Positions 1,987 through 12,775 of a DNA stretch of 34,976 nucleotides are shown piece after piece. The notes beneath the pieces are model-generated. The model did not search any database. It had not been told where the DNA came from and saw only the letters and a list, made by a program, of their open reading frames with translations. This DNA is from Treponematales bacterium (lineage in GTDB: Bacteria; Spirochaetota; Spirochaetia; Treponematales; JBGSOB01), in contig JBGSOB010000111.1 of assembly GCA_041739325.1 (NCBI GenBank), positions 1 through 34,976 of the forward strand. Direction: 5' to 3'. Numbering within the stretch: position 1 is the first letter of the stretch; every line of letters starts with the position of its first letter. The translations under genes and the position numbers were made by a program.

Positions 1987-2030
1987 TGCGGGAGAAAAAC
2001 CTTCTTAAGAAGAAGGTTTCTCCCCCGCGC
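1987..2030. terminator. GC-rich hairpin between convergent genes, lacking a U-tract (terminator-like)
   Basis: GCGGGAGAAAAACCTTCTT-AAG-AAGAAGGTTTCTCCCCCGCGC forms a long inverted repeat. A related hairpin motif recurs at 8977-9007. Confidence 0.3.
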
Positions 2031-2337
2031 CCGGCGCTCAGCCAATAACCCTTGTACTCTAAGATCTTGCTAGGGCTGAGCGCACTTCCAAGAAAGATAA
2101 AGCGTAATTTCCATTAAAAAGATAAGCTAGCTAGGGCTCCCAGCGATCAACCACGCGGCTTAAGGCGGTAATCTCAAAGGCTTCGGCAAAGGCGCGGAAG
2201 AGATCGTGCTTTTCCTTTTGGAAGTTTTCCAAACCTAGACGTGAAAAGCGCCGCGCTTCTTCAATAAAGAGCGCTTCCTGACTTTCCCTCGCTATGTCCC
2301 AGGCTTTCAGAACCCGCTCTTTACAAGCATAGAGGAG

Positions 2338-3864
2338 TTAGCGCGTAGGGAGCTTTGCCAGCTTTTTACCGTTTACCGACTCGTCCGAAGGAAGCAAATT
2401 CCAGAGGTCGTTGTTGTGCCAGAGGGCGTAGGGGAGGGCATGGTCGATCTCCAGCGACTTTATCTTCATGCCAGTCCACACACAGCCCAGGCCCTGGCTC
2501 AAGTAGGGCCGATACATGTCGCTTGCCAGCACGGTGCTGCGTTCGGGAAAGAGTTCTTGATCTAAGAGATTGATCATCCCTCCCTTTTCTATGCCCGGGC
2601 TTTGTTTAGGCAACTCCGCCGTATAGCCCGCCCAGTTTAGGATGAGGGAGTCCCGTATCCAGGGGCCTAAGAGGCAAAACTCTTTCCAGAGTTTTGAGCC
2701 CATGCAGAGGAGGCTGCCCTTCATGGAAAAAAGGGGGCCGCCAAGACGGGCGTTCGATTTTCCCGAGTAGACAACCGGGCCGTTTATGATGGCGCTACGG
2801 ATTTTTTCAAAGACGAGCGCCGCTGTCTTTAATTTTTCCCCACTCATACTGCCTGAACGCAAAGCGGAAAAAAAGGGAGAGCGGCCCATCGCGCCGCCCC
2901 ATTCGTCGATAAGGGTTTTTAGCTGGTTGCGGAAGATGATGTCCTGCCGGTTTTCTTGCTTGGGCCCTTGGAGTATGCCGCGGGCATCGGCGACAAGGGG
3001 CCAGTAGTATTCAAGCCATTTTTCTACGATGAGTTTTATGTCTATGCCTACCCTGTCGTCCGGCAACCAGACGGCGTTGCGGTAGCTTGTCATGGCTATC
3101 TCCGCCAAGGCGCGCAGGAGGGCAAACTTGTAGCTGGTGGTTTTAACGTCATTTCGAATAATCGACTCTATCTTTTCCAGCGGCCGCAGCTCCTGCCCAC
3201 CCGCCTCCTTCCTAAAGACAAGGGATTCCCAGCTTATGCCGGGACGGCTAAAGCCGTCGGAGTGCTTTGCGCTGTCGATAAGGCGGTAGCCTAGGCGGGA
3301 GAGGTGGAAATCGTAGGCGGAGCCGGGCCGCAGGCAAAAAAGGCGGCCGTCGGGGTCGCGGGGCAGGCCGTCGGGGCCGGGGGAGAGCCCTGCGTAGCTA
3401 CAAGGATGGACGATGATAATGGTGCCGCCCTCCGCCACAAGGCGGTGGAGGGAAAAAAGGCTGTCAAAGAGTTCGTTTTCTTGAATGTGTTGAACGACGG
3501 CGGAAAGGAGGATTGCCGCAAAGCCGCCCTCCTTGAGAAAGGGGGCCTTAGCGAGGTCTAGCTCAGGCAGACAGCCCTCCGCGAGGCGCTCCGGGCCGAG
3601 GGAAAAGCGGGCGGCGGCTTGGGCGCGCATAGCCGCGGCGGGTTCTATCCCATAGGAGTCGTAGCCTCCCTCAATGAGGGCGGCTATGTCCCGGCCGCTA
3701 CCGGCGCCAATGTCGAGGATACGGGTTTTAGGCTTTTCCGGGCCTACAGCCGCGCCGGGTAGAAACCGCTGGATTAGTTCGACTGCCGCAGAGGGTCTGA
3801 CCCCATAGAGTGCGGCTTTTTCCGCGGCATGGCTTTCGTAGACTGACGAAGTGAGGGCATCCAT
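2338..3864 (-). CDS. Three-part fusion protein: N-terminal class-I SAM methyltransferase, central domain of unknown function, C-terminal HNH/DUF1524-type nuclease
   Basis: ILDIGAGSGRDIAAL is a Rossmann SAM-binding motif I. No DPPY/NPPF or PCQ DNA-methyltransferase motifs are present. The C-terminus EIDHALPYALWHNNDLWNLLPSDESVNGKK fits the HNH/DUF1524 pattern (DH..P ... N..LLP ... N..K). The RBS is weak. Confidence 0.65.
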   Translation of the reverse strand: MDALTSSVYESHAAEKAALYGVRPSAAVELIQRFLPGAAVGPEKPKTRILDIGAGSGRDIAALIEGGYDSYGIEPAAAMRAQAAARFSLGPERLAEGCLPELDLAKAPFLKEGGFAAILLSAVVQHIQENELFDSLFSLHRLVAEGGTIIIVHPCSYAGLSPGPDGLPRDPDGRLFCLRPGSAYDFHLSRLGYRLIDSAKHSDGFSRPGISWESLVFRKEAGGQELRPLEKIESIIRNDVKTTSYKFALLRALAEIAMTSYRNAVWLPDDRVGIDIKLIVEKWLEYYWPLVADARGILQGPKQENRQDIIFRNQLKTLIDEWGGAMGRSPFFSALRSGSMSGEKLKTAALVFEKIRSAIINGPVVYSGKSNARLGGPLFSMKGSLLCMGSKLWKEFCLLGPWIRDSLILNWAGYTAELPKQSPGIEKGGMINLLDQELFPERSTVLASDMYRPYLSQGLGCVWTGMKIKSLEIDHALPYALWHNNDLWNLLPSDESVNGKKLAKLPTR

Positions 3865-3964
3865 GGGGAGAGTATTGCGGAATTCGCCCCCGGGCGCTAG
3901 AGCTTTTTTTCTCCACCCCTATTCCAGCGTCTCATTCAGCGCTACCTTAGGGACGGAGGCTTCT

Positions 3965-4309
3965 ATGAAGAAAACCATTGCTCTTGCCCTTATCGCCCTC
4001 TTCGTTCTTTCCTTTGCCCTAGCGTCCTGCGCCCCAGGGCCCAACCCCTTAAAGGGTAGCGCCGTGGAACTTACGGACGACTCTCCCTCGCCAACGAAGC
4101 CCGCCGGTTTTTGGCAGGGACTCTGGCATGGTATGATAGCTCCCATTACCTTCGTCGTTTCCCTCTTTAACAAGGCCGTCAACGTCTACGAAGTGCGCAA
4201 CTCAGGCAATTGGTATAACTTCGGCTTTATCATCGGCGTGTCGATAGCCTTCGGCGGAAGCGCCGGCGGAGCGGCTGGGGCTCGCAGACGGAGAATGCGC
4301 GGGGAATAA
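3965..4309 (+). CDS. Small lipoprotein with a Gly/Ala-rich, Arg-rich C-terminus
   Basis: Internal ATG at 3965 with a GGAGG RBS. MKKTIALALIALFVLSFALASC carries a signal peptide and lipobox LASC. The upstream part of the ORF track entry is read-through. Confidence 0.55.
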   Translation: MKKTIALALIALFVLSFALASCAPGPNPLKGSAVELTDDSPSPTKPAGFWQGLWHGMIAPITFVVSLFNKAVNVYEVRNSGNWYNFGFIIGVSIAFGGSAGGAAGARRRRMRGE

Positions 4310-6215: not shown

Positions 6216-7422
6216 ATGCCTACGCCTAAGAAAACCTTGGGTATAATCGGTATTATTGCCATTACAAGCGTATTATTTCTTGCCTGCCCCGTATCTCCAG
6301 GGGAGTTTGTCCAGCCTACCCCCGAGCCGACCCCAGTTCCTACGCCCGTGCCGCAACCAACGCCCACGCCTCTTGTGCTCGTATTCCAGGTTGAGAAGGA
6401 ATCTGTTATAGACACAAGCTTGGCAGGGCAGGCCACTGCCCAGGCAGGAATTCCGCTTGCTATCGAGGCTGCTGAGCTTACGGGGCATGTCTTTGCTCGC
6501 TGGACGGTAGTCAGCGGTTCGAACGTCACTATCGCCAATGTTTTTTCCGCAAAAAACCATGGCTACTTTGGGCGCAGACGCCACCCTTAAGGCTGTCTAC
6601 CGAACGGCTTATCTCAACCCCTTTAATGGGCATTCTTACAAGCTTATAGCGACAACGCGGACCTGGGCGGAAGCGCGGGCGGACTGCGAAGCCATGGGTG
6701 GCTACCTTGTGACAGTCACCTCCCTTGAAGAAAAAAACTTTGTAACGATGGTGCTTTCAACTCAAGCAACTCCAAGCTTTTGGTATGGGGCTTTCCAGCC
6801 CCAGCCAGAAGTGGCTCCTTCCGCAAATTGGCAGTGGGTGACAGGAGAGCCGTGGAGCTATACTAACTGGAATAGTGGTGAACCGACTAACAGTGCAGGC
6901 AATGAACACTTTCTTGCTACAGTGAGCACAGGCGGTGTATGGAACGATTATCCTGGCACTACGCTCTTGGGTTATATTTGTGAATGGGGCTGGGAGGACA
7001 GCTATCTACCTAAGTCGAGTTATGAAGGCCATCGCTATAGCTTTATAGACCTCAGTATGACTTGGGAACAAGCCGATGATTACGCAAAACAGCTTGGGGC
7101 TAAACTCGCTTCAGTCAACTCCGCAGCTGAATCTGAATTTATCCTTTCCATGATAGCTGGCGGAACACGGAGCTAGTATTGGCTTGGAGGCTATCAAAAT
7201 GGTAGCCCGGCAAATCCGGCCTTGGATTGGTACTGGGACGATAATAATGATGAAGTCGTGGATGTGCCCATAAACAGCGCTGGCTATCAGAATTGGGTTT
7301 CCGGCCAGCCGAATGATCTTCCCTCTGGGGCGAACCGTCTTGTACTGAGAAAGTCCGATGGTCAGTGGCTTGATGAGGTGAACAGCCCCAGCGTGCCCAC
7401 GGGCATCATACTCGAGTGGTAA
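6216..7422 (+). pseudogene. Inactivated paralog of the tandem C-type-lectin-domain lipoprotein (one frameshift plus one in-frame TAG)
   Basis: Three ORF-track pieces (6216-6590, 6538-7176, 7222-7422) align collinearly with the intact paralog at 7482-8678. The frame shifts in the A6 run near 6553-6558. At 7174-7176 an in-frame TAG sits where the paralog has Tyr (TRS*YWLGG vs TRNYYWLGA). The N-terminus carries lipobox FLAC. Confidence 0.6.
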
Positions 7423-7481
7423 AACGCGAAGGATAGATAGCAGTCGTCATATTATATGTGAAGGTTCTTTGGAGGAATAGC

Positions 7482-8678
7482 ATGAGTATCGCCCGTGAAA
7501 AAATGATAGTTCTTGGACTTGGTTTTATTATTTCTTTAGTTTTGACGGCCTGTCCCCCGGTTGATGAGCTTGATTTGGAGCCAACGCCAAGCCCGACGCC
7601 GACTCTGGAACCAAGCCCCAGCCCCAGCCCAGTGCCTTACCAGCTGAGCATTCAGGTGAAGATTGAGGGAGTAGTAGACGCAGGTCGCGCTAGCCAAGTG
7701 GCTGTCCCCGTGGGCCAAGAAGCGCAAATCCGGGCATTAGCCATTAGTGGGAACATCTTTTGCCGTTGGGAAATTCTCAGCGGGGCAGGTGCCTCTATCA
7801 TGGATCCCTTTGCCGCTCAAACAAGCCTCAGTATTCAGGCGGACACAGTGCTTACGGCTGTCTATGTCAATGCCTACTATAACGCCTTTAATGGCCACTC
7901 TTACAAGTTGGTAAATGGAGCTCAAACCTGGGTCCAAGCCCAGGCGGCTTGCGCGGCTATGGGCGGGCACCTTGTAGCCATAGCCAACGCCGAAGAGCAG
8001 AGTTTTGTAAACCTTCTTTTGAACCGGCCAGAGGCGAGCGGGACCCAGTATTGGTATGGGGGCTTTCAGCCCCTGACGAGTAATGAACCTCTTGGAAATT
8101 GGCAGTGGGTGAGCGGTGAGCCTTTGACCTGGGGGAATTGGTCCGCAAGTCAGCCTGACAACGTGGGCGGTGAGCACTATATGCACTCAGCAGATAAGAC
8201 TGGTACCTGGAACGATAATACGGCTGTAGCGACGTTGGGCGGCTATATCTGCGAATGGGGCAATGAAACGAGCTATATTCAAAAGGTAAAATTCGGCGGC
8301 CATCGCTATGCCTATTCTGACCTTCAGATGACTTGGGATCAGGCAAAAGACTATGCGGAAAAGCTGGGTGGGCGGCTTGCGATAATCAGCTCGCAAGCGG
8401 AAAACGATTTTGTTTACTCTCTTATCGGGCCGAGTGTAGGCACGCGAAATTATTATTGGCTAGGTGCGCGGCAGATAGGGGTTTTGGAAAATACCGAGGG
8501 TTGGGAGTGGCTCAACGGTAATTCTCTTTCCAGTACCCTGGTTTTCCGAAATTGGGGGACTGCCCAACCCGACGGGGCTAATACCGGAACAAATAAATTG
8601 ATGATTTCCCGTTCCGAGGGTACGTGGTTTGATGAAGTAGGTAGCAATCTTAATGGCATTCTCATTGAATGGGAATGA
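7482..8678 (+). CDS. Lipoprotein with a Pro/Thr/Ser linker, a beta-rich domain and two tandem canonical C-type lectin domains (CTLDs)
   Basis: ATG at 7482 with a GGAGGA RBS, lipobox LTAC. Each CTLD shows the full W..A...C...GG.LA.I....E..F....W.G....W.WV.GEP...NW...QPD....EH.....G.WND....GYICEW pattern. QPD and WND Ca/sugar-binding motifs are present. Confidence 0.75.
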   Translation: MSIAREKMIVLGLGFIISLVLTACPPVDELDLEPTPSPTPTLEPSPSPSPVPYQLSIQVKIEGVVDAGRASQVAVPVGQEAQIRALAISGNIFCRWEILSGAGASIMDPFAAQTSLSIQADTVLTAVYVNAYYNAFNGHSYKLVNGAQTWVQAQAACAAMGGHLVAIANAEEQSFVNLLLNRPEASGTQYWYGGFQPLTSNEPLGNWQWVSGEPLTWGNWSASQPDNVGGEHYMHSADKTGTWNDNTAVATLGGYICEWGNETSYIQKVKFGGHRYAYSDLQMTWDQAKDYAEKLGGRLAIISSQAENDFVYSLIGPSVGTRNYYWLGARQIGVLENTEGWEWLNGNSLSSTLVFRNWGTAQPDGANTGTNKLMISRSEGTWFDEVGSNLNGILIEWE

Positions 8679-9980: not shown

Positions 9981-10102
9981 TCCCTTAAGATAGACGTGCG
10001 CCCTGGCGCGGTCAAGCGCATTTACCCTGCGGTTACCGAACTTTTGCCTAATAATGAAAAGACGGCTTGCGCAGGCGGCGCCGGATGGGGCACTCTGCGG
10101 GC

Positions 10103-11014
10103 ATGACGAACAGCTTTGCTTACCTAGGAGAAGCGGCCGCCCTGGGAACCGCCGCCTGTTGGACGGCTTCTTCAGCCAGTTTTGAGGCCGCCACCAAGCG
10201 CATTTCATCTCGCTCGGTAAATATCATCCGCTTGGCCATGGCCTTCGGCTTCCTCTGCATCTTCAATCTTTTTTACCGCGGCATGGTTCTGCCCACGGAC
10301 GCCGGTCCGCGGCAGTGGCTCTGGCTGAGCGTTTCCGGCCTTATCGGCTATACCCTGGGCGACCTCTTCCTTTTTGCGGCCTTTGCCAGCGTGGGCGCCC
10401 GCGTTTCCATGCTCATCATGGCCCTTGCCCCAGCCCTCACCGCCCTCTTGGGCTTTATCTTCTTAGGTGAAAGCCTTTCCGCCAAGGCCCTCTTGGGCAT
10501 GGGACTGACGATGCTCGGCATTGCCATTGTGGTGCTCAAGCCCGGCCAAGGCAAGCTCAAGCTCTCCCATCCGCTGCGGGGCATTCTTTTGGCGGGCGGG
10601 GGAGCGATGGGTCAGGCGATAGGGCTTATCTTTTCAAAGCTTGGCATGGATATGGGCGAGGGCATGCTCTACCCTGCCACCGCCGCTGGGCAGATTAGGG
10701 TGCTCTCCGGCTTTGTGGGCTTTGCCGTCTTGTACAGCTTTATGCGCATCTGGCCCCAGGTTTTTTCCGCGCTCAAGAACCGTCAGGGCATGCTCTTTTC
10801 CCTCTCCGGCTCCTTCTTCGGGCCCTTCGTGGGGGTGAGCCTTTCCCTGATCGCGGTGGCAAACGCCGAGGCTGGGGTGGCTTCCAGCCTCATGTCCATC
10901 ACCCCCATCCTCATCATTCCCATTTCGGTTTTTATCCTACGGGAAAAGATCCGCGTCTTGGAGATTCTGGGCGCCGCCCTAGCCGTTTCCGGCGTTGTCT
11001 GTATGTTCCTTTAG
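10103..11014 (+). CDS. EamA-family (DMT superfamily) transporter
   Basis: About ten TM helices in two EamA-like halves (AALGTAACWTASSASFEAATKRISSRSVNIIRLAMA ...). The start could instead be the ATG at 10085. Confidence 0.65.
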   Translation: MTNSFAYLGEAAALGTAACWTASSASFEAATKRISSRSVNIIRLAMAFGFLCIFNLFYRGMVLPTDAGPRQWLWLSVSGLIGYTLGDLFLFAAFASVGARVSMLIMALAPALTALLGFIFLGESLSAKALLGMGLTMLGIAIVVLKPGQGKLKLSHPLRGILLAGGGAMGQAIGLIFSKLGMDMGEGMLYPATAAGQIRVLSGFVGFAVLYSFMRIWPQVFSALKNRQGMLFSLSGSFFGPFVGVSLSLIAVANAEAGVASSLMSITPILIIPISVFILREKIRVLEILGAALAVSGVVCMFL

Positions 11015-11053
11015 GGCGATGTCGGCACTTGCGCTTGCGCTGGCGCAAGCGGC

Positions 11054-12775
11054 TTATTTTACGGCGTGGCGCTTAACCTTGCGCGTCGTCGTCATTTCAA
11101 GGGGCTTGTCCAGCACCGTACTGCGCGAAATGCGCGAGTAGGGCAGAAGGCGGCTGTTGACTTCTGCCACGATAGCCTCGATGCGCGCCTTGATCTGAGC
11201 TTCCTTCAAGGCGTTGCCCGCCGCGGCCCTTGCCTCAAAGAAATCCTTTGCCGGGTAGATGAATACCTCAATGCCCTCGGTGCGCGCAGCCTTGTCCGCC
11301 ACATAGCCGCGGATCAACACCTGCTCTACCTCGCCAAAGAGTTGGAATTCGTTTTCGATCTCCTCCGGGTAGACGTTCTTGCCGCCCTCGGTAACGATCA
11401 TGTTCTTGGCCCTGCCTGTCAGGTAGACGTAGGACTCGGCGTCCAGCCGCCCCACGTCTCCTGTTTTAAACCAGCCGTCTTCGGTAAAGACAGCCTGGGT
11501 AGCCGCCTCGTTCTTGTAGTAGCCTTGCATCACCATCGGCCCCTTGATGGCCAATTCCCCATTGCCGTTTGCGTCTGGGCTCAAGACCTTCATTTGGGCG
11601 CCGGGGACAAGGCGGCCCACCGATGTCGGTTTGTAGTGCTCTATGGGGTTGAGGGTGACGATGGGCGACGTCTCGGTGAGGCCGTAGCCCTGAACGAAGT
11701 CTAGGCCCAGGCGGTTATAATCCGCGAAGACGGAGGGCGCCAGGGGGCCACCGCCGGATATGCAAATGCGCAGGGTTGAGAGGCTGGCCTGCTCTAAAAT
11801 GGAGTGGAATATCTTTTTGCCGGGATTGATGCCGGTGGCCTTTTTAATGGCGCCGGAGACAAGCATGAGGGCGCGGATGATACCGTAGACGAAGGCGCCC
11901 TTGGCCTTGATCTTGGCCATAATGCCGTTGATGAGCTTGTTAAAGAGCATGGGAACCCCAAGGAACATCGTCACCTTGGCTTCCTTGAAGTCGCGCAGTA
12001 CCTGGGCAATGGCCATGCGTTTTGCGAAGACGATCTCGGCGCCTACCGACATGGCTTCAATAAAGACCGCCAGCATGGTGTAGGAGTGGTGTATGGGGAG
12101 GAGGGCGTAAAAGACGTCTGTGGGGAAGATGAGAAGATTTCCTTGGGAAAGGAAGCAGTCTGCCGTCAGGTTGGCGTGGCTGAGCATGACGCCCTTGGGG
12201 TCGCCCATGGTGCCGGACGTAAAGAGGATGGCCGCTAGGTCAGCCTCTTTGGGCTTGCGCTCCGCATTTAAAGTTGCCTTGGCCTCGAGGTCGTAGAGGT
12301 AGGGTTTGCGTTCCGCGCTGATGGAGTAGAGGCCTTTAATATCCAGTTTCTTGGCGGCAAAGAGGTCGAATTTTTCCTCGTCGCAAAAGACCATCCCCGC
12401 CCCCGAGGCGCGGATGAGGGCCTCGGCTTCTTCCATGCGTAGCTGATGATCTAGGGGAACGACGACGCAACCGGCGTAGAGGACGGCTAGGTAGGCAACG
12501 GCCCATTCCGGGGCGTTTTTACCAGTTACCACTACCCTATCCCCAGGCTGGAGGCCCGAGGCGGCGATATAGCCGGCGAGTTTCAAAACCCTCTCGCGGG
12601 CCTGGGCGTAGCTTAGGCTCTGGCGGCCGTTTTCGTAGATGGTAAAACAGGGCCTCTCGGGGAAGCGATGGGCGGAGATATCGAAAAGCTCGGGAAGGCT
12701 TGGCCATTCCCCGGTAAAGAAGCTCCCCCTGAACTGATCCAGGACCTTCCATGGTTCACGCGGCGTGTACGGCAT
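11054..12775 (-). CDS. Long-chain fatty-acid--CoA ligase (AMP-binding family, FadD-like)
   Basis: Motifs include ILFTSGTMGDPKGVMLSHANL (AMP-binding), YGLTETS and WFKTGDVGRLDAESYVYLTGRAKNMI. Confidence 0.85.
   Translation of the reverse strand: MPYTPREPWKVLDQFRGSFFTGEWPSLPELFDISAHRFPERPCFTIYENGRQSLSYAQARERVLKLAGYIAASGLQPGDRVVVTGKNAPEWAVAYLAVLYAGCVVVPLDHQLRMEEAEALIRASGAGMVFCDEEKFDLFAAKKLDIKGLYSISAERKPYLYDLEAKATLNAERKPKEADLAAILFTSGTMGDPKGVMLSHANLTADCFLSQGNLLIFPTDVFYALLPIHHSYTMLAVFIEAMSVGAEIVFAKRMAIAQVLRDFKEAKVTMFLGVPMLFNKLINGIMAKIKAKGAFVYGIIRALMLVSGAIKKATGINPGKKIFHSILEQASLSTLRICISGGGPLAPSVFADYNRLGLDFVQGYGLTETSPIVTLNPIEHYKPTSVGRLVPGAQMKVLSPDANGNGELAIKGPMVMQGYYKNEAATQAVFTEDGWFKTGDVGRLDAESYVYLTGRAKNMIVTEGGKNVYPEEIENEFQLFGEVEQVLIRGYVADKAARTEGIEVFIYPAKDFFEARAAAGNALKEAQIKARIEAIVAEVNSRLLPYSRISRSTVLDKPLEMTTTRKVKRHAVK

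Follow-up and report, generated by a model that had tools for sequence, protein, structure and literature searches.

Contig JBGSOB010000111.1 of a Treponematales bacterium (NCBI GenBank assembly GCA_041739325.1), analyzed here at its full length of 34,976 nt and hereafter called the window, raises the question of why the reading frame of one of its genes stays open beyond the stop codon. The gene encodes a product of 508 amino acids (aa) that joins a class I S-adenosylmethionine (SAM)-dependent methyltransferase to an HNH nuclease (open reading frame, ORF, 2338..3864 on the minus strand, with an ATG start and a TAA stop at 2338-2340). Past this TAA the same frame remains open for 68 codons (2134-2337) until a TAG at 2131-2133 (-), and the joined reading, i.e., the 508-aa ORF plus the 68-codon extension, amounts to 577 aa. 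An initial annotation, made from the sequence alone, had described the ORF, the stop, and the extension with its translation exactly as they are present, and had offered two explanations, a C-terminal domain cut off by a nonsense mutation or a stop that is read through. By length alone the open frame is unremarkable, as stop-to-stop segments of at least 68 codons make up 7.6% of all such segments in the window (55% G+C), and the case for the extension therefore rests on homology. We consider it very probable that the window holds a stop-interrupted copy of a widespread and uncharacterised protein family, the intact members of which would be stand-alone, DNA-targeting defence nucleases coupled to a methyltransferase.

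A search with the joined 577-aa query returned 589 protein matches. Coverage of the query is 100% for the best intact ones (~555–565 aa) and just 88% for the 508-aa product of the window itself. In the family alignments, one of 16 sequences and one of 76, the extension aligns with the family C-terminus up to its ...RW(E)P ending and includes a series of invariant or nearly invariant residues (W522, F533, F556, E564, T566, A567, R570, R574, and W575). Because homologs cover the extension completely and family-invariant residues lie inside it, it is real coding sequence, and the 68 codons after the TAA encode the conserved C-terminus of a protein family. The TAG at 2131..2133 (-) marks the ancestral stop of the gene, the family ending ...RW(E/x)P being aligned with ...DRWEP just before it. 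Tail lengths were surveyed in 80 further metagenome homologs, 74 of which could be followed to their stop (four ran off the contig and two lacked the HNH 'WN' motif). After this motif 67 of the 74 carry 84–103 residues and the other seven, which are C-terminal peptidase fusions, 266–308, so the frame extends at least 84 residues past the HNH motif in all of them, and genome-derived homologs agree. In the window the tail has 19 residues, which the extension would raise to 88. None of the 74 metagenome homologs has a stop in the first 40 aa beyond the HNH motif, and at this position none of the intact genome loci has one either.

Profile and structure comparisons lead to the same segment. The profile search, made over 1.84 billion representatives, aligned the window protein with profile positions 1-489 of 558. 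The family profile aligns with the Cas9 HNH domain (E 3.7e-6) over a region that spans '...LPSrellkkrk...' and runs across the window's stop position, and the NCBIfam and PADLOC Cas9 models match window residues ~448-554. The positional G+C of the extension is coding-like (GC1 > GC2 < GC3), and its ratio of window-to-family to within-family identity (0.80) lies among those of the methyltransferase (0.78), central (0.82), and HNH (0.87) parts. Structures were modelled for the nearest full-length homolog (P0002) and for its aa 215-561; the part missing from the window product corresponds to four helices of the homolog (P0002 residues 488-553), each modelled with a predicted local distance difference test (pLDDT) score > 90. 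Alignments, tail lengths, and this model thus concur on a conserved C-terminal helical subdomain that continues the HNH domain (2134..2337, -). The 508-aa product keeps the catalytic D474-H475, N489, and N498, and with them the DH...N...N core, but by the model it loses four helices of the nuclease domain, which is left incomplete. Of the two explanations offered initially, that of a C-terminal segment cut off by the stop holds, since every intact homolog carries the segment fused. Separate expression of the 68-aa tail was rejected, as the stretch has no ATG or GTG and only a single, late TTG. The open frame past the stop hence needs no exotic explanation, and the annotation of a 508-aa 'protein' should be corrected, the gene having 577 aa and this copy being either truncated or sequenced wrongly.

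How the stop arose is a separate question. The truncating in-frame TAA (2338..2340, -) falls in a variable column of the family, where the residues are E 17, R 14, A 8, D 7, N 6, S 6, Q 5, K 2, and others, and TAA can be reached by a single substitution from GAA, CAA, or AAA. By comparison with its homologs, the TAA is peculiar to this sequence and not a feature of the family. The codons past it show no extra decay, hence the interruption is either very recent or not real: it would be a very recent nonsense mutation or a single-base assembly error, and we slightly favour the mutation. Under the second explanation the organism has an intact gene of 577 aa, and the TAA stems from an error in base calling or assembly, or from a minority allele that became fixed in the consensus. 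We regard this as possible, though the less probable course. It would account for an extension with neither extra divergence nor a second lesion, for a stop that is one substitution away from the codons expected to be commonest at that column (GAA, CAA, or AAA), and for a sequence that occurs once in the protein collection, on one contig, with metagenome-assembled genomes (MAGs) as its nearest relatives. Nothing speaks directly against it, but disrupted copies in other public assemblies indicate that real inactivation is common. One copy carries an IS21/rve insertion (L010 1545-7176), another is split in the same frame into ORFs of 199 and 305 aa (L040 9896-11563), and a third is present as a short fragment only (L043 5605-6102); inactivation of the family gene is recurrent. 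The nearest relative in any collection searched has 42–45% identity, an exact-pattern scan of metagenome contigs found no close relative, a protein-based scan found none above 38% identity, and the contig index has no entry for the exact protein of the window.

A reassignment of TAA was rejected, since among the 18 largest ORFs of the window it is the commonest stop, used by 9 of them. The second initial explanation, programmed or leaky read-through that yields some full-length protein from the TAA allele, is very improbable: the frame past the stop is open and conserved, the following base is a C (in E. coli a weaker context after UAA), and the 96 nt from the stop onward (2250-2345, -) fold somewhat better than shuffles (-34.8 kcal/mol, z = -2.3, 4 of 200 shuffles as good), but the folding signal is weak, with one test behind it, TAA is the ordinary main stop of the window, UAA is the most efficient bacterial terminator, we know of no programmed UAA read-through of such kind in bacteria, and with a stop at or near this position in 0/74 metagenome homologs and in no intact genome locus, read-through is not a family trait.

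What the intact gene would do has to be approached through its domains. The N-terminal part (aa ~1-215; 3220..3864, -) matches class I methyltransferase families of Pfam over aa ~26-157 and has a Rossmann-like fold, a GxGxG motif I (ILDIGAGSGRD), and an acidic residue ending beta2, with D51, G53, G57, R58, D59, H126, and G147 invariant in the family. It has no (D/N/S)PP(Y/F/W) motif, no C5 PC motif, and no target-recognition domain; the sequence after beta4 reads SAVVQH in the window (family consensus SAVLMH), and none of 76 members matches the Pfam families N6_Mtase, N6_N4_Mtase, or DNA_methylase at E ≤ 0.1. All of its structural neighbours are small-molecule, RNA, or protein methyltransferases, and by these comparisons the domain resembles small-molecule enzymes and not DNA methyltransferases. 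At the other end of the protein, the nuclease core (aa ~441-508; 2341..2544, -) contains C461, W463, D474-H475 (nt 2440-2445), N489, N498, and K501, and matches HNH_4 over aa 469-506 (26.2 bits vs. a cut-off of 22). D474-H475, N489, and N498 are invariant in the family, and we take them to be equivalent to D839-H840, N854, and N863 of SpCas9. Foldseek retrieved only Cas9 HNH domains for the nuclease part, with a probability of up to 1.0 for isolated domains of ~110–140 residues. The core is best assigned to the Cas9-type HNH (beta-beta-alpha-metal) nucleases, with predicted catalysis. A DUF1524/GmrSD nuclease, the type to which the motif had initially been likened, was rejected, as neither the window protein (E ≤ 1) nor any of the 76 members (E ≤ 0.1) gave such a match. 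Pfam and motif searches otherwise bear out the fusion as first described, that is, a class I SAM methyltransferase devoid of DNA-type motifs, an unannotated centre, and a C-terminal HNH nuclease.

For the central region (aa ~226-440; 2545..3189, -), in which no motif had been recognized, the absence of any sequence-level link to a solved structure or Pfam family stands, but the models give it a fold, a winged helix (wH) followed by a helical bundle. The nearest solved folds include the sulfur-binding domain (SBD) of ScoMcrA, the structural similarity to such domains being modest, and the winged helices of ORC/Cdc6. The sulfur pocket of SBDs is formed by H116-R/K117 and Y164-P165 (PMC6224610, PMC7461809). 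In the winged helix of the family two motifs are conserved: K..TYKFALLRAL, with the invariant Y245-K246, and EKWLxYYWP, with the nearly invariant W288-P289, which is replaced by Y-P in Bacteroidota and by Y-x-P in a distant alphaproteobacterial branch. The spacing from Y-K to W-P is 43 residues vs. 48 in SBDs, and the equivalence of the positions is only putative. The winged helix may possibly read a phosphorothioate-like modification in the manner of an SBD.

The family is more interesting than the stop in the window. In the profile search ~960 clusters at 50% identity scored E ≤ 1e-30, and species-representative genomes yielded at least 444 loci, with a patchy distribution among species across many phyla. 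Members occur in Spirochaetota (which provide the best matches to the window), Verrucomicrobiota, Lentisphaerota, Burkholderiales, Sphingomonadales, Idiomarinaceae, Planctomycetota, and Bacteroidota, as well as in one bacterium of the Candidate Phyla Radiation and one Crenarchaeota MAG. The normal product has ~560 aa in four parts: methyltransferase, winged helix, helical bundle, and an HNH nuclease with ~70 C-terminal helical residues. With regard to mobility, a member was present on 28 plasmid records and in none of 50,697 phage genomes. RefSeq names are generic ('class I SAM-dependent methyltransferase' or 'HNH endonuclease domain-containing protein'). That the protein could not be matched to a described defence family was confirmed: PADLOC-DB v2.0.0, which has no model for it, gave no full-length match and only domain-level ones (the methyltransferase core matching mad2, the nuclease matching the HNH of Cas9, and the HIT partner described below matching ThsC), and a methyltransferase-wH-HNH or methyltransferase-HIT plus HNH system was not found as a described family in the literature searched. 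In ~5–10% of the members a C-terminal Peptidase_S24 domain (LexA/UmuD-like) is attached, with its GRSMEP serine motif intact (e.g., P0038, P0056, P0059, P0071, P0074, and P0090; L007 8001-10292). By analogy, this domain could couple activation to RecA and DNA damage via self-cleavage.

Clustering of the neighbouring ORFs in 80 genome loci revealed no universal partner gene, and the majority of the seeming neighbour clusters turned out to be shadow ORFs antisense to the gene; the gene is stand-alone. Enrichment of defence genes around homologs, a check proposed together with the initial annotation, was borne out in most homolog loci examined, the window copy excepted. For instance, locus L001 has McrB-McrC immediately downstream, a type IIG restriction-modification (R-M) system, and HicAB, while L003 has DUF559, two HNH_2 proteins, and patatin; SymE is present in L005, NERD-UvrD helicases and WYL regulators in L010 and L011, and DUF262 and HNH genes on a Nostoc plasmid. 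PLD-helicase-DUF3427 and WYL-WCX each recur in five loci, AbiEi in four, and NERD-kinase in three, and in L176 Wadjet jetABCD lies directly downstream. In one clade (L001 8001-12723; L002 527-5249) the gene stands 19 bp upstream of a co-oriented McrB-like (AAA_5) gene and McrC, and may form an operon with this McrBC-type motor.

Within Bacteroidota the nuclease occurs without the methyltransferase, as a separate gene of 369 aa. In eight of these loci (L053, L055, L056, L062, L077, L081, L084, and L088) the gene that follows shares a few bases with it and codes for a protein of 288 aa in which a class I methyltransferase (Methyltransf_23, E 1e-12) is fused to a HIT domain (E 7e-23), and two more, independently annotated genomes have the overlapping pair (methyltransferase-HIT gene at L175 8092-8958 and L176 8098-8964). 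By hhalign the Bacteroidota methyltransferase matches the N-terminal domain of the family with 97% probability. The pair looks like a conserved two-gene cassette, because the flanks differ between genomes, even for near-identical cassettes. Fusion and fission keep methyltransferase and nuclease linked, which is good evidence that they act together; the link outlasts the splitting of the gene, and in the split form a HIT nucleotide hydrolase comes in addition. Elsewhere the gene downstream of the nuclease-only gene encodes a HIT protein alone (L060 11077-11469, L069 11119-11529) or, on the Hymenobacter plasmid NZ_CP095057, a product annotated as a nucleoside triphosphate (NTP) pyrophosphohydrolase (L174 6150-6467). 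The repeated pairing of the nuclease with nucleotide-handling enzymes hints that the accessory chemistry concerns nucleotides. As a single case, in a Flavobacterium MAG, a nuclease-only gene adjoins a Cas9 gene of 1136 aa (L048, 6314-9724 on the minus strand beside 9986-11095 on the plus strand).

On these grounds we infer that the intact family comprises stand-alone, single-polypeptide, DNA-targeting nucleases with a restriction-like role in defence. The winged helix would bind DNA, where it might recognize a modified backbone or base in the way of sulfur-binding or N6-methyladenine (6mA)-reading winged helices, and the Cas9-type HNH domain would cut it, while the methyltransferase domain would bind SAM and then either modify a non-canonical substrate or gate the nuclease. 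The architecture resembles that of reader-HNH type IV enzymes, both SBD-HNH and wH-HNH, and the stand-alone gene with its reader-like winged helix is consistent with a modification-dependent (type IV) assignment. The nuclease module proposed initially, one that depends on a modification or generates it, would fit the neighbourhoods of the homologs and the fission in Bacteroidota. Among the closest known systems are the phosphorothioate-dependent type IV enzymes with SBD-HNH or SBD-SRA-HNH architecture (ScoMcrA, SprMcrA, EcoWI). With the 6mA-dependent wH-HNH as well as PUA-wH-HNH enzymes (HhiV4I, SruGXI) the family has in common that a winged helix and HNH are fused, that the genes stand alone, and that they lie in defence islands. 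Proteins of the HhiV4I/SruGXI type have 224–496 aa, a DpnI-like winged helix, and no methyltransferase (PMC11037411); the present family differs in having one, and no similarity to them turned up, though no search was aimed at it. The HNH domain of Cas9 (HNH_4) is the best match in sequence and fold, including the segment beyond the beta-beta-alpha core, with the Asp-His and two Asn aligned. Unlike Cas9, the family has no RuvC, REC, or protospacer-adjacent motif (PAM)-interacting domain and no CRISPR context; it is stand-alone and has C-terminal helices of its own. The family is, on this comparison, best described as a reader-HNH nuclease with an attached methyltransferase of non-DNA type, and the window copy as an interrupted member of it.

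The alternative with the stronger claim is a fused R-M enzyme, in which the methyltransferase marks host DNA, the winged helix reads the mark, and HNH cuts unmarked DNA. As in type IIG and other fused R-M enzymes and in the MADS system with mad2, methyltransferase and nuclease belong to one system here, obligatorily linked as a fusion or as an overlapping gene pair, and the best PADLOC match of the methyltransferase core is mad2 (E 1e-9 to 6e-15). According to one preprint (10.1101/2023.03.30.534895), host DNA methylation is lost when the MADS gene designated mad2 is deleted, which counts in favour of this alternative. The methyltransferase itself speaks against it. In place of a (D/N/S)PP(Y/F/W) or C5 PC motif it has SAV(V/L)(Q/M)H after beta4, it has neither a DNA-methyltransferase match in Pfam nor the target-recognition domain that would set it beside type IIG enzymes, its structural neighbours are of other kinds throughout, and the mad2 match is limited to the generic Rossmann core (~272-430 of the 492 positions of the mad2 profile). 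The HIT partner of the split form, and the HIT-alone or NTP pyrophosphohydrolase genes at some loci, point to nucleotides rather than DNA. We therefore consider an R-M enzyme rather unlikely.

A more specific version of the defence nuclease is that the methyltransferase, being of small-molecule type, acts on or senses a nucleotide or backbone substrate instead of DNA bases and thereby licenses the Cas9-type HNH, in an anti-invader system of a new kind that includes the split form. Candidate roles would be the sensing of SAM availability, nucleotide methylation, or action on a backbone group of phosphorothioate-like type that the SBD-like winged helix holds; variants fused to S24 would in addition be triggered by DNA damage, through self-cleavage stimulated by RecA. 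In this detailed form we put the idea forward only tentatively, as one that is improbable in itself.

That the family has no part in defence, and consists of nucleases for housekeeping or repair or of selfish HNH elements of the homing type, is likewise doubtful. The ordinary genes around the window copy would suit such a role, as would a Bacteroidota subfamily that is 76–84% identical across genera at a fixed 369 aa, but the patchy species distribution, the flanks that vary even for near-identical cassettes, and the recurrence of defence genes as neighbours argue against it, as do the presence of the family on plasmids, its absence from the 50,697 phage genomes searched, and its repeated disruption by insertion sequence (IS) elements or stops.

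Several points weigh against the interpretation that we prefer, an interrupted copy of a stand-alone, methyltransferase-coupled defence nuclease. Its defence role, methyltransferase substrate, and modification dependence are hypothetical. No close relative of the window copy was found in any collection searched, so a real mutation and an assembly error are indistinguishable and an estimate of the ratio of nonsynonymous to synonymous substitutions (dN/dS) is impossible. The neighbourhood of the window copy is no defence island, its flanks being ordinary (PD40 protein, membrane proteins, DUF1295, DinB, and C-type lectins). Finally, the nuclease-only proteins of Bacteroidota (P0337-P0456) are 76–84% identical and exactly 369 aa long across many genera, including Mariniflexile, Aequorivita, and Alkalitalea, and such identity is unusually high for a presumed defence gene. 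With these points taken into account, the family is a plausible new defence candidate with a mechanism predicted from its domains. It offers a testable candidate for a restriction-like system with an unusual logic of self/non-self recognition or activation, and intact copies are present in several cultured strains, with Idiomarina zobellii KMM 231, Sphingomonas yabuuchiae DSM 14562, Aquabacterium humicola RJY3, and Aliidiomarina maris CF12-14 among the candidates.

The remaining observations concern the surroundings of the gene in the window. Where the 1273-1968 gene and the methyltransferase-HNH gene converge, the repeat finder detected between their ends an inverted repeat (1988..2028) with 19-nt arms (89% complementary) and a 3-nt loop, which lies 103 nt downstream of the TAG. 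This hairpin, absent from the calls of the consensus terminator scan, is probably a bidirectional transcription terminator serving the full-length gene. On the other side a small, divergent ORF (3851-4309, +) encodes a membrane protein or lipoprotein, and its listed GTG start overlaps the first codons of the methyltransferase-HNH gene. Its true start is probably an internal ATG (MKKTIALALIAL...), which would leave a short divergent promoter region. Further along, at 6216-8678 (+), tandem genes with C-type lectin domains were found (Pfam Lectin_C, E 3e-21 for 6538-7176), in which Pro/Thr-rich, lipoprotein-like N-termini precede the lectin domains; proteins with such domains are uncommon in bacteria.

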